This document shows, one piece after another, positions 27,105 to 51,669 of a DNA stretch of 64,000 nucleotides. Where the stretch lies: NCBI GenBank assembly GCA_036172315.1, contig JASFBC010000018.1, forward strand, positions 246-64,245. The letters are read 5' to 3'. The position numbers and the translations under genes are program-made. This DNA comes from Anaerolineae bacterium (GTDB lineage Bacteria > Chloroflexota > Anaerolineae > B4-G1 > DUEL01). The notes beneath the pieces were generated by a model. That model was given only the letters and a program-made list of their open reading frames with translations. It searched no databases and was not told the DNA's origin. The stretch's first letter is position 1; every line of letters starts with the position of its first letter.

Positions 27105-27364
27105 GGCGTGCGCCCGCGCGGGATAGAAACGCGGAAGCACCCTGAGGAAGCGCAGGTACCCCCTGCGCTCCTCATTTCCACCTGTGCGGTTCGCCAGTTT
27201 TTGAAACGCTTCTTGGCCTGGGTGTCACCCGGGAACCGCACCGGTGGATTTTTTTCGTTCGCCCCTTTTCCGCTTTGTGCTATAATTAGCGCGCGATGCC
27301 CCAATTGGCCCGGGACGTTTCACGTGAAACAATTCAGAACGCCTGCTCCCCGGGAAGTCAGGAA

Positions 27365-28198
27365 ATGGATCCCGCCCTGTATTCCCATCTCATAGACCTG
27401 GCCCTGGCCGAGGATATCGGCCCCGGAGACGTTACCTCGGAGGCGGTGCTGCCGCCAGGCCTTCGCCTCCGCGCCCATATCGTCGCCAAACAGGGAGGAG
27501 TCATCGCCGGGTTGCCCGTTGCCGAGGCCGTCTTCCGGCGAGTGGACCCGTCCGTCCGCTTCACCCCGGGCGTCGGAGACGGCGCGCAGGTGGAGGCCGG
27601 GACCGTCCTGGCGGAGGTGGAGGGGCCGGCCCGAAGCCTCCTGGCAGCGGAACGGACCGCCCTCAACTTCCTCCAGCGCCTCTCCGGTATCGCCACCTTC
27701 ACCCGCCGCTTCGTGGATGCCGTCGCCGGGACGCGCGCCATCATCCTGGACACCCGTAAGACCCACCCTGGCTGGCGGGCCCTGGAGAAGTACGCCGTCC
27801 GCATGGGCGGCGGGCGGAACCATCGCATGGGCCTCTACGATATGATCCTCATCAAGGACAATCATATCGCGGCGGCAGGTTCCATCACCGAAGCCGTCCG
27901 GCGGGCCCGCGCGGCCTGCCCCGACCTGCCCCTGGAGGTGGAAGTCAAGAATCTGGACGAACTGCGGGAGGCATTGGAACTGCCCGTGGACCGGATTATG
28001 CTGGACAACTTTGACTTGGAGGGCATTCGTGCCGCCGTCCGCATCGCCGCCGGACGGGTGCCGCTGGAGGTCTCCGGCGGGGTGACGCTGGAGCGGGTCG
28101 CCGAACTGGCCGCGACGGGGGTGGACTATATCTCCGTGGGCGCGCTGACGCACTCCGCCCCGGCGCTGGATATGAGTATGGAAGTGGTAGGCAAGTAG
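27365..28198 (+). CDS. nadC: Nicotinate-nucleotide pyrophosphorylase (quinolinate phosphoribosyltransferase)
   Basis: LIDLALAEDIGPGDVTS...ILDTRKTHPGWRALEKYAVRMGGGRNHRMGLYDMILIKDNHI is a clear NadC signature. Confidence 0.9.
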   Translation: MDPALYSHLIDLALAEDIGPGDVTSEAVLPPGLRLRAHIVAKQGGVIAGLPVAEAVFRRVDPSVRFTPGVGDGAQVEAGTVLAEVEGPARSLLAAERTALNFLQRLSGIATFTRRFVDAVAGTRAIILDTRKTHPGWRALEKYAVRMGGGRNHRMGLYDMILIKDNHIAAAGSITEAVRRARAACPDLPLEVEVKNLDELREALELPVDRIMLDNFDLEGIRAAVRIAAGRVPLEVSGGVTLERVAELAATGVDYISVGALTHSAPALDMSMEVVGK

Positions 28199-47346: not shown

Positions 47347-47495
47347 GGACGCAGATAAACGCAGATTCTCTCGGATTTATTTCGGACGCAGATAAACGCA
47401 GATTCTCTCGGATTTATTTAGGACGCAGATAAACGCAGATTCTCTCGGATTTATTTCGGACGCAGATAAACGCAGATTCTCTCGGATTATCTTTG
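47347..47495. repeat. 37-bp tandem repeat array (GGACGCAGATAAACGCAGATTCTCTCGGATTTATTTC x3.5) in the 5' leader of the ABC-exporter operon
   Basis: Near-identical units at 47347, 47384, 47421 and 47458 (partial). These are followed by a 32-bp repeat x2 at 47511-47575. Confidence 0.85.
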
Positions 47496-47922
47496 AAAAT
47501 CTTCACCATCGGCCAGCGAAGCCTGCGAAAATCTGCGTCCATCTGCGAGCGAAGCCTGCGAAAATCGGCGTCCCGTTTTATTTCGGACGTAGAGAAAGGC
47601 AGATTCTCGCGGATTTTTTAATATTAAGGGCAAGATTTCCCCGTCGCTATTCCCGATAAAGTCTCATATAGACAGCGCGGCCGTAGGGGGAGCCCCACGG
47701 CCGCGCGCAGGAGAAACAGAAAGGCCGTGGGCTCCCGCAGGCGCCCACGGCCTTAAGTATTATTTAATTAGCAGCCAGGTGGCGCACTGCGGCACGGCAT
47801 GCGGGTATCCCCACTACCCAGCGCAGGAAACCCGATCATCCATGGAATCGTCGCAATGCTCATCTGGCCTGCTCCTTGGTGATTTCGTTTTCTATTCTAC
47901 TCCACTCCGGAGAATTGTCAAA

Positions 47923-49494
47923 TCAAGATTCCCGATAATGGCAGCCCCGGCTCCGGCGGTTGTGATAGGCGGCCTCTGCGACCAGGAGCGCCGCCTGCAC
48001 CGCGTGGCGCAACCCCACCAGCCCGTCGCTCAGCCGGCTGGCCCGGTAGAAGTCGTCTATCTCTTCCTTCAGGTGGCGGAGGTCCCGGAGGGCGCGCGTG
48101 AGCCGCCGCTCGGAGCGGACCAGCCCCACATAGTTCCACATGGTGTACTGGATCGCCCGCAGGTCGCGCCAGATAAGGGCCGGGTCCGCCTCCTCCACCC
48201 CGGTCTCCTCCCAGGGCGGGACCTCCTCCGGGGAGACGATGGGGAGCGCACCCCGCGCCGCGATGGCCCGCGCGGCGCGCTGGCCCCAGACCAGTCCCTC
48301 CAGGAGCGACGTGGAGGCCAGCCGGTTGGCCCCGTGGACCCCCGTGCAGGCCACCTCTCCGACGGCGTAGAGGTTGCGAATCGTCGTCCGGCCCCACTCA
48401 TCGGTCCAGACCCCGCCGCAGAAGTAGTGGGCCGCCGGGACGACCGGGATGGGCTGGGCAGTGATATCCAGCCCCAGCGACCGGCAACGGTCATAGATGG
48501 TGGGGAAGCGCTCCCGAATCCGCTCCGGCGGGAGGATGGAAGCAATGTCCAGCAGGACATAGGGGTAGCCGTTGGCAACCATTTCGTGGTGGATGGCCCG
48601 CGCGACCACGTCCCGGGGCGCCAGGTCGCCCCACTCCGGGGCATATTTCTGCATAAAGGGACGACCATCCGGAGTGAGCAGCCGTCCTCCTTCCCCTCGT
48701 ACTGCCTCCGAGATGAGGAACCCCTCCGCGCCGGGGAGGGCCAGGACGGTGGGATGGAACTGGATGTACTCGGCGTTGATGACGCGCGCTCCGGCCCGAT
48801 AGGCCATGGCCAGGCCATCGCCCCGGGCCCCCTCCGGATTGGTGGTGTACCGGTAGATGCGACCCAGGCCGCCCGTCGCCAGTACCGTCGCCCCGGCCAG
48901 ATACCGGTGCACCCGCCCGGTGGCCCGGTCCAGCACATACGCGCCATGGCAGGTGATGGGGTCATAGACGGTGAGGGAGTCGCGGGCATGGTGGGGAAAG
49001 GTGATGAGGTCCACCGCTGTGGCGCCGGTCACCAGGCGGACGTTGGGATACCGGCGCAGCGCGGCGACCAGCGCCCCGATGATGGCCCGCCCCGTCGCAT
49101 CGCCGACGTGGAGGATGCGGGGGCGGGAATGGGCACCCTCCAGGCCGTAAGCCAGCCGCCCGTCGGGCTCCCGGTCAAAGGGGACGCCCAGTTCCCGAAT
49201 CAAAAACTGCTCCACCAACCGGGGCCCCTCTTCGGCCAGGATCCGGACAGCGGTGGGGAGGCTGAGGCCGGCCCCGGCGGCCAGGACGTCCTGGGCCAGG
49301 AGGTCGGGGCTATCGTCCTCCCCCAGCGTGACGATGCCGCCCTGAGCGTAGCGGGTGTTGCTCTCTTCGGGGTCCGCCGCGCGGGTAATAACGGTGACCT
49401 GCCGCTGGCGGTCGCGCGCCAGGACCAGCGCGGCGGTCGCTCCGGCAATCCCACAGCCGATGATCAGGACGTCACTCTCTACCAGTTCGGTCAT
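47923..49494 (-). CDS. nadB: L-aspartate oxidase
   Basis: DVLIIGCGIAGATAALVL...RPILHVGDATGRAII...the HGANRLASTSLLEGLVWG family signature. The ATG overlaps the vapC stop (ATGA). Confidence 0.9.
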   Translation of the reverse strand: MTELVESDVLIIGCGIAGATAALVLARDRQRQVTVITRAADPEESNTRYAQGGIVTLGEDDSPDLLAQDVLAAGAGLSLPTAVRILAEEGPRLVEQFLIRELGVPFDREPDGRLAYGLEGAHSRPRILHVGDATGRAIIGALVAALRRYPNVRLVTGATAVDLITFPHHARDSLTVYDPITCHGAYVLDRATGRVHRYLAGATVLATGGLGRIYRYTTNPEGARGDGLAMAYRAGARVINAEYIQFHPTVLALPGAEGFLISEAVRGEGGRLLTPDGRPFMQKYAPEWGDLAPRDVVARAIHHEMVANGYPYVLLDIASILPPERIRERFPTIYDRCRSLGLDITAQPIPVVPAAHYFCGGVWTDEWGRTTIRNLYAVGEVACTGVHGANRLASTSLLEGLVWGQRAARAIAARGALPIVSPEEVPPWEETGVEEADPALIWRDLRAIQYTMWNYVGLVRSERRLTRALRDLRHLKEEIDDFYRASRLSDGLVGLRHAVQAALLVAEAAYHNRRSRGCHYRES

Positions 49495-49904
49495 AAGCCT
49501 CCCGTGAGCCATTCCACCCGGATCAATCCTTCCACTTTCTGGAACTCCGGGTCGCCCGTCACCAGGGTCGCGTCCTGCACCCAGGCCAGTGCCGCCGCAA
49601 AAGCGTCTGCGTAGGAGATGGGATGATTCGCTTTTATGTGGGCTGCTGTAAAGGTGAGATCCCGGTCCGGAGGAACAATCTCTAGGGGGAGGTGGTCTAT
49701 GATCCGGATGGCCCCCTCCGCAGCGGGACGTCCCCCTTGCCGCTCACTGATATAGAGCACCTCCCCGTAGTTCACCAGGCATAGGGAGAGGCGAATTTCT
49801 CCGGCATGGGCACTGAGAAGCAACTGTCGAGCCCGCTCCGCTCCGGGCTCTCCACGCAGATAAGCGAGGAGCGCGAAGGCGTCAAAAACGTAACGGCGGC
49901 TCAA
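49491..49904 (-). CDS. vapC: PIN-domain toxin (VapC family)
   Basis: VFDAFALLAYLRGEPG...ISYADAFAAALAW...TGDPEF shows the PIN acidic residues. Overlaps vapB. Confidence 0.75.
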   Translation of the reverse strand: MSRRYVFDAFALLAYLRGEPGAERARQLLLSAHAGEIRLSLCLVNYGEVLYISERQGGRPAAEGAIRIIDHLPLEIVPPDRDLTFTAAHIKANHPISYADAFAAALAWVQDATLVTGDPEFQKVEGLIRVEWLTGGL

Positions 49905-50142
49905 CTTCCTGTTCCTCCCTCTCCCGCTCTTTCAGGAGGGCCTGAGTCCAGGACCCCTCGCCTCCAAAACGCCGAAGGGCCCCGAAACCCTCTTGGACAG
50001 GGTCCTCCGGGACTGGCACAATGGAGAGGATGCCGCCATAGTCAATAAACTGAACCCGTGTGCCAGGCCGCAGGCCATACCGCTCCCGGTACTCTTTGGG
50101 GATTACTACCCACCCTTTTGGAGAAACGGTCATTGTCGTCAT
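49882..50142 (-). CDS. vapB: AbrB/SpoVT-MazE-type antitoxin (VapB)
   Basis: MTTMTVSPKGWVVIPKEYRERYGLRPGTRVQFIDYGGILSIVP is a swapped-hairpin AbrB fold signature. Promoter TTGCAT-16-TATACT lies at 50178-50205 (minus strand). Confidence 0.7.
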   Translation of the reverse strand: MTTMTVSPKGWVVIPKEYRERYGLRPGTRVQFIDYGGILSIVPVPEDPVQEGFGALRRFGGEGSWTQALLKEREREEQEVEPPLRF

Positions 50143-50322
50143 GCTGAAACCCCAGTAAGTAATACTTTCTGCAAAAAAGTATACCAGAAAGGGCGGAAAA
50201 TGCAACCGGAGGGGCGATAGCCGCCGCCCTTTCCACTCCTCCCGTTTGACAAACAGCAAGATGTATAATAAGATTGAGGCGATTCCACGTTATTGTAAAA
50301 GCCGACCTTGAGGGAAATTTTT

Positions 50323-51669
50323 ATGGAAAACGAAACTCTTCTATCCCGCATCTCTTCCCGCACCGCGCGGGTCGCCGTTATCGGACTGGGATATGTGGGG
50401 CTGCCGCTGGCGGTAGCCTTCGCCCGGGCCGGGTTCCCGGTCACCGGCGTGGATGTGGATGAGCGCAAGGTTGCCGCGCTGAACGCAGGCCGCAGTTACA
50501 TCGGCGACGCCTCCGATGAGGATCTGCGCCCCTATGTGGCGTCGGGCCGCCTCCGCGCCACGACGGACTACGACGCGCTTCGGGACGCAGACGCCATTTT
50601 CATCTGCGTCCCCACCCCCTACGACGCCCAGCGGGCCCCCGACCTCTCCTACATCCGCGCCGCTGCAGAAGGCATTCGCCTCCGCCTCCGCCCCGGCCAA
50701 CTGGTCGTCCTGCAATCCACCACCTACCCCGGCACCACCGAGGAGATCGTCCAGCCCATTCTGGAGGCGAGTGGTCTCAAGGCGGGCGTGGACTTCTACC
50801 TGGCCTTCTCCCCGGAGCGGATCAACCCGGGCGACAAATACTGGTCGGCTTCCAATACCCCAAAGGTGGTGGGGGGCGTGAATCCGGCCTCCACCCATCT
50901 GGCCTGCGAGTTGCTGGGCCAGATGGGCGCGCCCGTCCACCCCGTCTCCTCCCCCCGCGCTGCCGAGATGACCAAACTCCTGGAAAACATCTTCCGCTCC
51001 GTCAATATCGCGCTGGTCAACGAACTGGCCCTGCTGGCGGAGCGGATGGGAATTGATTTCTGGGAGGTCATAGAGGCGGCGAAGACCAAACCCTTCGGGT
51101 TTATGCCCTTCTATCCGGGGGCCGGGGTGGGCGGGCATTGCATCCCGGTTGACCCCTACTACCTCTCCTGGAAGGCCCGGGAGTACGACTTCTACACCAA
51201 ATTCATAGAACTGGCGGCAGAGGTGAATCAGGCCATGCCCTACCACGCGGTGGACCTGGTGGCAGAGACCCTCTCTCAAGACGGGCTCCCTGTGAGGGGG
51301 GCGCGGGTTTTGGTGCTGGGCGTGGCCTTTAAGCCAGATATAGACGACCCTCGCAACTCCCCCGCCGAGCGGGTGATAGAACTCCTGCTGGCCCGGGGCG
51401 CGGAGGTCCGCTATCACGACCCCTACATCCCCCGCTTCACCGTCGGGGGGGACGTCTTCTACCGGCCCAACTGTACGCTGGAATCGGTCCCGCTGACCGA
51501 TGAGGAACTGGCATCCGCCGACTGCGTGGTCATTGTGACCGGACACCGGTCGGTGGATTACGCGCGGGTGACCCAAACGGCGCAGCGGATGGTGGACTGC
51601 TGTAATGCTACCCGGGGCGCGCCGCAGGGGCAACGGGTCGTCCGCCTGGGCGCTCCTTTCCCCCGGTGA
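50323..51669 (+). CDS. Nucleotide-sugar dehydrogenase (UDP-N-acetyl-D-glucosamine/mannosamine 6-dehydrogenase-like)
   Basis: VAVIGLGYVGLPLAVAFARAGFPVTGVDVDERKV...GGHCIPVDP (catalytic Cys). Confidence 0.85.
   Translation: MENETLLSRISSRTARVAVIGLGYVGLPLAVAFARAGFPVTGVDVDERKVAALNAGRSYIGDASDEDLRPYVASGRLRATTDYDALRDADAIFICVPTPYDAQRAPDLSYIRAAAEGIRLRLRPGQLVVLQSTTYPGTTEEIVQPILEASGLKAGVDFYLAFSPERINPGDKYWSASNTPKVVGGVNPASTHLACELLGQMGAPVHPVSSPRAAEMTKLLENIFRSVNIALVNELALLAERMGIDFWEVIEAAKTKPFGFMPFYPGAGVGGHCIPVDPYYLSWKAREYDFYTKFIELAAEVNQAMPYHAVDLVAETLSQDGLPVRGARVLVLGVAFKPDIDDPRNSPAERVIELLLARGAEVRYHDPYIPRFTVGGDVFYRPNCTLESVPLTDEELASADCVVIVTGHRSVDYARVTQTAQRMVDCCNATRGAPQGQRVVRLGAPFPR

Follow-up and report, generated by a model that had tools for sequence, protein, structure and literature searches.

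A stretch of 64,000 nucleotides (nt) from an Anaerolineae bacterium (contig JASFBC010000018.1), here called the window, carries a VapBC toxin-antitoxin (TA) cassette that lies flush against nadB, the gene for L-aspartate oxidase in the synthesis of nicotinamide adenine dinucleotide (NAD). The reading favoured here, with a probability of about 0.65, is that a mobile cassette came to lie directly in front of nadB in a group of hot-spring Chloroflexota and donated its promoter, and that the arrangement has persisted as a frozen accident with no dedicated circuit between toxin and NAD. The cassette retains the hallmarks of a TA module, its promoter and putative operator are conserved at eight diverged vapBC loci, its toxin gene overlaps the start of nadB, and close relatives manage without it. 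Loci of relatives are designated by L-numbers throughout.

The vapB-vapC-nadB gene trio

The three genes are arranged head to tail on the minus strand, as the original prediction from the bare sequence had stated, and all of its coordinates match. The features are as follows.

49882..50142, minus strand: vapB, antitoxin of the AbrB/SpoVT fold, 86 aa (domain models, reading frame)
49491..49904, minus strand: vapC, PIN-domain toxin, 137 aa, TTG start (domain model, reading frame)
47923..49494, minus strand: nadB, L-aspartate oxidase, 523 aa (TIGR00551, reading frame)
49498..49503, minus strand: GGGAGG, a Shine-Dalgarno-like element for nadB located within vapC, 3 nt before the ATG (read from the sequence)

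The AbrB and PIN domains, whose absence had been named as grounds for abandoning the assignment, are both present in searches with hidden Markov models. VapB scores above the cutoffs of PF04014 (27.4 bits, cutoff 24.7) and of the AbrB family model TIGR01439 (41.9 bits, cutoff 28.3), VapC matches the PIN model PF01850 with E = 2e-18, and NadB reaches 500.6 bits against the equivalog model TIGR00551 (cutoff 452.75). The two overlaps that had been described are also found. vapB shares 23 nt with vapC, and the tetranucleotide ATGA at 49494-49491 comprises the nadB ATG (49494-49492) and the vapC stop codon TGA (49493-49491). An independent gene caller, applied to an identical contig, likewise places the nadB start at 49494; a longer version of the protein would be possible from an in-frame alternative ATG at 49512.

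Toxin and antitoxin

Judged from its sequence, the vapBC pair of the window is a genuine type II VapBC cassette with a PIN toxin, predicted to be toxic, and an AbrB antitoxin. The acidic quartet of VapC is intact (D8, E48, D100 and D118); the first three residues never vary among 27 homologues, in which D118 is conserved to at least 90%. Both genes are under purifying selection, with ratios of nonsynonymous to synonymous substitution (dN/dS) of ∼0.06-0.16 for vapB and ∼0.06-0.2 for vapC. The closest solved relative of the toxin is VapC30 of Mycobacterium tuberculosis (PDB 4xgq), which was reached by profile search only (E = 5e-4), and a single-sequence search of solved structures with VapC returned no match. 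Neither VapB nor VapC matched the anti-phage defence models of PADLOC, and an Rfam scan across the window yielded no family above threshold.

In the VapC of L010 (5001-5411), which is encoded inside an intact NAD operon, the fourth acidic residue is replaced by Asn (TGNPEF vs TGDPEF), a change that may attenuate the toxin. Together with L019, where vapB is retained and vapC has been lost, this replacement would suit a domesticated pair in which VapB and VapC have ceased to act as a TA module and do no more than regulate nadB as a transcription factor complex. Such domestication is very improbable for the window, as its VapC has all four acidic residues, the family is strongly conserved, and the foreign composition and recombination described below are those of a mobile module.

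Promoter and putative operator of the cassette

Upstream of vapB lie three elements that overlap or adjoin one another.

50200..50205, minus strand: -35 hexamer TTGCAT of the vapB promoter (read from the sequence; TTGC kept in most relatives)
50178..50186, minus strand: extended -10 element, TGgTATACT (TATACT invariant in eight vapB upstream regions)
50162..50182, minus strand: putative VapB(C) operator, palindrome ATACTTT-N7-AAAGTAT (7-nt inverted repeat with a conserved core)

The elements and spacing of the TTGCAT-16-TATACT promoter stand as originally proposed, with 16 nt between TTGCAT (50205-50200) and TATACT (50183-50178), and a TG at 50186-50185 precedes TATACT to give an extended -10. 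The inverted repeat that had been noticed across the -10 is real, and its half-sites, ATACTTT (50182-50176) and AAAGTAT (50168-50162), are perfect over 7 nt. This palindrome overlaps the -10 and the likely transcription start. The pattern TATACT-N11-AGTAT occurs once in the window, where 0.06 occurrences would be expected.

Phylogenetic footprinting used an alignment of the DNA upstream of vapB from eight loci; three of these are free-standing vapBC modules with VapC 60-68% identical to that of the window. TATACT and a GTAT.AC situated ∼13 nt downstream are invariant in all eight regions while the DNA around them has diverged, and the palindrome core ATAC(T)...(A)GTAT is invariant as well, the free-standing loci included. 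Because the -10 and the palindrome are unchanged in diverged loci of both kinds, nadB-linked and free-standing, they are part of the cassette and move with it. The conserved core at eight vapBC loci is the best support available for the VapB operator that had been proposed.

The vapC-nadB junction and the expression of nadB

The overlap between vapC and nadB takes two forms. It is the 4-nt ATGA in the window, L102 and L019, and 19 nt in L002-type and L010-type alleles, where the nadB ATG is embedded in the GAA-TGG (Glu-Trp) codons of the C-terminal IEWL motif of VapC. Most relatives have the 19-nt form, and the 4-nt ATGA is not the conserved one. This motif is conserved and is also found in free-standing VapCs. 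In all three allele groups (window, L002 and L010) the start of nadB overlaps or falls within vapC, and intergenic DNA is found in none of them. No terminator is predicted between vapC and nadB in the window, L002 or L010, and no same-strand promoter was detected within vapBC of L002 or L010. Given the overlap, the lack of a terminator and the lack of a conserved internal promoter, co-transcription of nadB from the vapB promoter is the best in silico reading, and the promoter of nadB is very probably supplied by the cassette. The original claim that nadB is placed under a TA promoter and operator thus has its structural basis in the overlap, the absent terminator and the weak, genome-specific nature of the single internal site, while co-transcription itself is what we infer from them.

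That internal site is the sole same-strand promoter-like sequence inside vapC of the window.

49652..49623, minus strand: promoter-like TTTACA-18-AATCAT inside vapC, 130 nt upstream of nadB (promoter scan, 9/12 match)

A separate nadB promoter had been named as the observation that would speak against shared transcription, and what was found is this weak promoter-like site, present in this genome only. Were nadB transcribed mainly from it, the cassette would merely be adjacent to a gene that is transcriptionally independent. The site matches the consensus at 9 of 12 positions, lies on the correct strand at a distance of 130 nt, and both its hexamers result from substitutions peculiar to this genome, so it could be a recent gain. 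However, chance alone would give ∼0.7 such matches in the region scanned, the -10 AATCAT lacks the first T, and the site is absent from the closest allele, L102, as well as from L002, L031, L010 and L013, yet nadB is conserved in these loci (dN/dS ∼0.07). Independent transcription of nadB is, on balance, improbable.

Translational coupling between vapC and nadB may accompany a shared transcript, given their overlapping reading frames. An enforced form of coupling, in which RNA structure hides the nadB ribosome-binding site, is unsupported: the RNA fold at the nadB start does not differ from shuffled sequences (z = +0.52), and no structure occludes the site.

Distribution of the cassette among relatives

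Sequence similarity among VapC homologues coincides with genomic position. Those 72-87% identical to VapC of the window all have nadB as the next gene downstream, and those at 70% identity or less are free-standing and lie beside genes for GH130 glycosidases, PMT glycosyltransferases or ScpA. The linkage was surveyed in the 80 closest nadB loci of species-representative genomes, which cover Anaerolineae and Thermoflexales, then Acidobacteriota and others. In most of these loci nadB directly follows nadA, which usually has nadC in front of it, and there is no cassette. The cassette is present in four of the 80 (L019, L020, L021 and L031), with NadB at least 93% identical to that of the window; three of the four share the context of the window on the side of the gene for UDP-glucose dehydrogenase (UGDH), the other, L020, being a contig of 2.8 kb. 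The comparison of nadB neighbourhoods that had been proposed as a check thus reveals a lineage-specific cassette.

Several close relatives lack it altogether. In L022, UGDH adjoins nadB at a distance of 180 nt, and only the UGDH promoter block and the 5' end of nadB align with the cassette loci. No significant remnant of the cassette was found in L022; a shared 9-mer, TGGTATACT, is suggestive without being significant. Other close cassette-free relatives are L023, in a different context, L024 and L025, with nadC-nadA-nadB, and L027. In L019, vapB is intact and vapC is a pseudogene with an in-frame stop and a frameshift, an observation from a metagenome-assembled genome at 7x coverage that needs confirmation.

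L010, with VapC 72% and NadB 83% identical to those of the window, carries the cassette within a complete NAD operon, in the order NrtR-pncA-nadE-nadC-nadA-vapB-vapC-nadB-kptA-pncB. The same junction is found in an operon and in the context of a broken operon, which argues for a single origin. As far as the compared loci indicate, cassette and nadB seem to have been joined a single time, in Thermoflexales.

The NAD operon and NrtR

The gene order NrtR-pncA-nadE-nadC-nadA-nadB-kptA-pncB is kept in the NAD operons of Anaerolineae relatives. In the window, nadC stands alone at 27296-28198, flanked by an SPFH-domain gene region and a DUF362/ferredoxin gene, which bears out the earlier remark that it is separate from nadB, and nadA was not found within the 64 kb. 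The lone nadC and the missing nadA imply that the ancestral nadC-nadA-nadB operon has been fragmented in this genome. A study of Thermoflexus described an unexplained release of nicotinic acid and noted that the annotated nicotinate pathways are incomplete (PMC8129789).

In the intergenic regions between NrtR and the next gene, paired 21-bp palindromes of the form TTAGTGT-N7-ACACTAA lie downstream of near-consensus TTGACA/TATAAT promoters. A consensus derived from seven NAD operons (L010, L028, L033-L036 and L042) suggests that these palindromes are likely NrtR operators. A search of the whole window that allowed up to three mismatches did not find the motif, not even upstream of nadC. The vapB palindrome was itself considered as an NAD-sensing NrtR operator and rejected, on the grounds that the TTAGTGT-N7-ACACTAA motif is absent from the window and that free-standing cassettes carry the vapB palindrome too.

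Composition, recombination and history

The cassette differs in composition from its surroundings. GC content at third codon positions (GC3) is 62-66% in vapBC, compared with 86% in nadB and 81% in the neighbouring dehydrogenase gene. When the window is compared with L002, the dehydrogenase gene and nadB are ∼90% identical at the nucleotide level, and identity falls to 60-77% precisely over the promoter and vapBC. L002 and L008 show the opposite, with a cassette that is 99-100% identical and nadB at ∼92%. Synonymous divergence (dS) between the window and L002 amounts to 1.45 for vapC and 0.36 for nadB, a gap that may in part be explained by the difference in GC3. This mosaic of identities indicates that the alleles of the cassette are old and divergent, and that recombination swaps them in and out of a frame that is itself conserved. 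Patchy presence, low GC3, decay in L019 and mosaicism are all traits of an accessory, mobile element.

On a neighbour-joining tree of NadB, L010 is sister to the Thermoflexus-like clade. L024, L025 and L027 keep the GTG start of nadB seen in outgroups, which favours the view that these loci never had the cassette.

Accident or adaptation

The cassette is dispensable, as L022 and L019 illustrate, and its nearest relatives outside this lineage are ordinary free-standing modules; both points argue against a dedicated circuit. The linkage probably persists because the start signals and promoter of nadB are physically entangled with the cassette, which makes a functional tie between toxin and NAD unnecessary. 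As a single lineage-specific event that involves a dispensable, recombining cassette, the case also carries less biological weight than the original prediction gave it.

The alternative is that the cassette is kept for an adaptive reason. Under such rewiring, nadB would have been switched from the NAD-sensing NrtR to a stress-sensing control that depends on antitoxin stability: degradation of the antitoxin would de-repress the operon, so that the level of L-aspartate oxidase would go up as the toxin is activated. The promoter brought by the cassette would also have been what allowed the NAD operon to split, and the embedded nadB start would anchor the cassette in place. In keeping with this are the retention of the junction in two genomic contexts and three old allele groups, purifying selection on vapB and vapC, the lack of an NrtR operator in the window, and the repression of nadB by the MqsA antitoxin in Pseudomonas putida (PMC5422877). 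However, the junction is one homologous association that arose once and so offers no replication, L022 manages without the cassette and L019 with a dead toxin, the closest VapBC relatives are ordinary free-standing modules, and retention is more simply attributed to a nadB start codon and promoter that lie inside the cassette. Fission of the operon by TA insertion, with anchoring of the cassette, is thus possible but unreplicated, and rather unlikely as an account of the locus.

A number of observations weigh against the frozen accident of a promoter-donating cassette. The vapB promoter was not listed by the consensus scan, and its -35 agrees with the consensus at only three of six positions, so that the original description of it as good was generous; the counterpart in L010, TTGCCT-17-TATACT, is listed by the promoter scan. 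TTTACA-18-AATCAT could act as a promoter in the genome of the window. The cassette-free loci L024, L025, L027, L023 and L022 are interleaved with cassette loci on the NadB tree, which means that a single insertion needs at least three losses or else that the junction spread by recombination, and the order of gains and losses is uncertain. Finally, the junction has been kept in three anciently diverged alleles (dS >1.4) and through a rearrangement, and this persistence could also reflect selection.

The course of events behind a promoter-donating cassette would have begun with a nadC-nadA-nadB operon controlled by NrtR. The cassette would have entered immediately 5' of nadB, a state that presumably survives in L010, and the operon would have broken later in the clade of the window, the Thermoflexus-like Anaerolineae, with nadB staying on the cassette and relying on its promoter. 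In the present arrangement, a vapB-vapC-nadB mRNA begun at the cassette promoter would carry nadB as its third cistron, and transcription of nadB would track VapBC autorepression, being low and constitutive and de-repressed once the antitoxin is lost. Translation of nadB would proceed from the ATG at 49494, possibly aided by ribosomes that terminate on vapC. The cassette would in this way provide nadB with a promoter, the context of a ribosome-binding site and, in most alleles, a start codon.

Should the tricistronic transcript exist, a housekeeping cofactor gene would depend on a selfish element for its promoter and start codon. The locus would then be a natural example of how TA cassettes become entrenched and donate promoters that let operons break apart, and nadB expression in these thermophiles would track antitoxin stability and not NAD levels. 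The case is limited to one lineage in which close relatives dispense with the cassette, and it illustrates known principles without adding a new system.

Flanking features

The boundaries of the locus are marked by two further features.

50246..50274, plus strand: divergent UGDH promoter TTGACA-17-TAAGAT, the boundary with the neighbouring gene, outside the cassette (promoter scan)
47712..47752, minus strand: first strong hairpin with a T-tract downstream of nadB, part of a separate small unit (hairpin prediction)

The UGDH promoter block is invariant in relatives, cassette-free L022 included. UGDH of the window (50308-51669, 453 aa) has no intein, and the orthologues in L004, L007, L009 and L021 contain one (Intein_splicing, with or without LAGLIDADG; products of 634-931 aa).

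Read-through from vapB, vapC and nadB probably ends at the hairpin at 47712..47752. The small unit to which this hairpin belongs (47712-47921, minus strand) begins directly after the nadB stop with a strong promoter, TTGACA-16-TAGAAT (11/12), followed by a conserved hairpin region of ∼90 nt that also holds a 31-aa open reading frame (ATG 47863, MSIATIPWMIGFPALGSGDTRMPCRSAPPGC); two terminator-like hairpins come next. Conserved copies of the unit occur in L002, L006, L009 and L019, and L008 and L022 lack it. Its RNA fold has z = -2.9; no compensatory pairs were seen among five sequences, and there was no Rfam match. It could encode a small RNA or a micro-protein. Between this unit and an ABC-transporter gene, tandem repeats occupy 47347-47573 (a 37-nt unit in 3.8 copies with 98% matches, and a 33-nt unit in 2.4 copies), and both arrays are absent from the aligned relatives.

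Comparison with known systems

The cassette resembles type II VapBC modules such as that of M. tuberculosis VapC30 in its PIN toxin with an acidic quartet, the upstream antitoxin of the AbrB/SpoVT fold, the overlapping genes, the palindromic and here putative operator over the promoter, and a patchy, recombining distribution. In contrast to these modules, a housekeeping gene of the window has its ribosome-binding site and start codon within the 3' end of the toxin gene, and VapC matches any solved VapC only remotely.

A literature search returned no description of a vapBC-nadB linkage. TA modules that are co-transcribed with downstream housekeeping genes are already known, as in mazEF-rsbUVW-sigB of Staphylococcus aureus and Listeria monocytogenes, where the TA module lies upstream, is co-transcribed and contributes its promoter (PMC4885055, PMC5308263). 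In both cases a type II TA module is situated immediately upstream of a non-TA gene, with the shared transcript predicted from sequence for vapBC-nadB. In the mazEF-rsbUVW-sigB locus there are additional promoters inside the operon and mazF is followed by a weak terminator, whereas vapBC and nadB have no spacer and overlap. The toxins also differ, a PIN protein here and MazF there, as do the downstream functions, NAD synthesis and a sigma factor.

With the NrtR-regulated nadC-nadA-nadB operons of Anaerolineae, the locus shares an orthologous nadB. Unlike in those operons, nadB of the window is detached from nadA and nadC, has no candidate NrtR operator, and has the promoter of the cassette as its nearest. 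A different link between a TA antitoxin and nadB transcription exists in P. putida, where MqsA represses nadB in trans via a palindrome in the nadB/algU intergenic region (PMC5422877). An antitoxin would be tied to nadB transcription in the window as well, but it belongs to an unrelated family, and the tie would come from physical fusion into one operon instead of regulation in trans.

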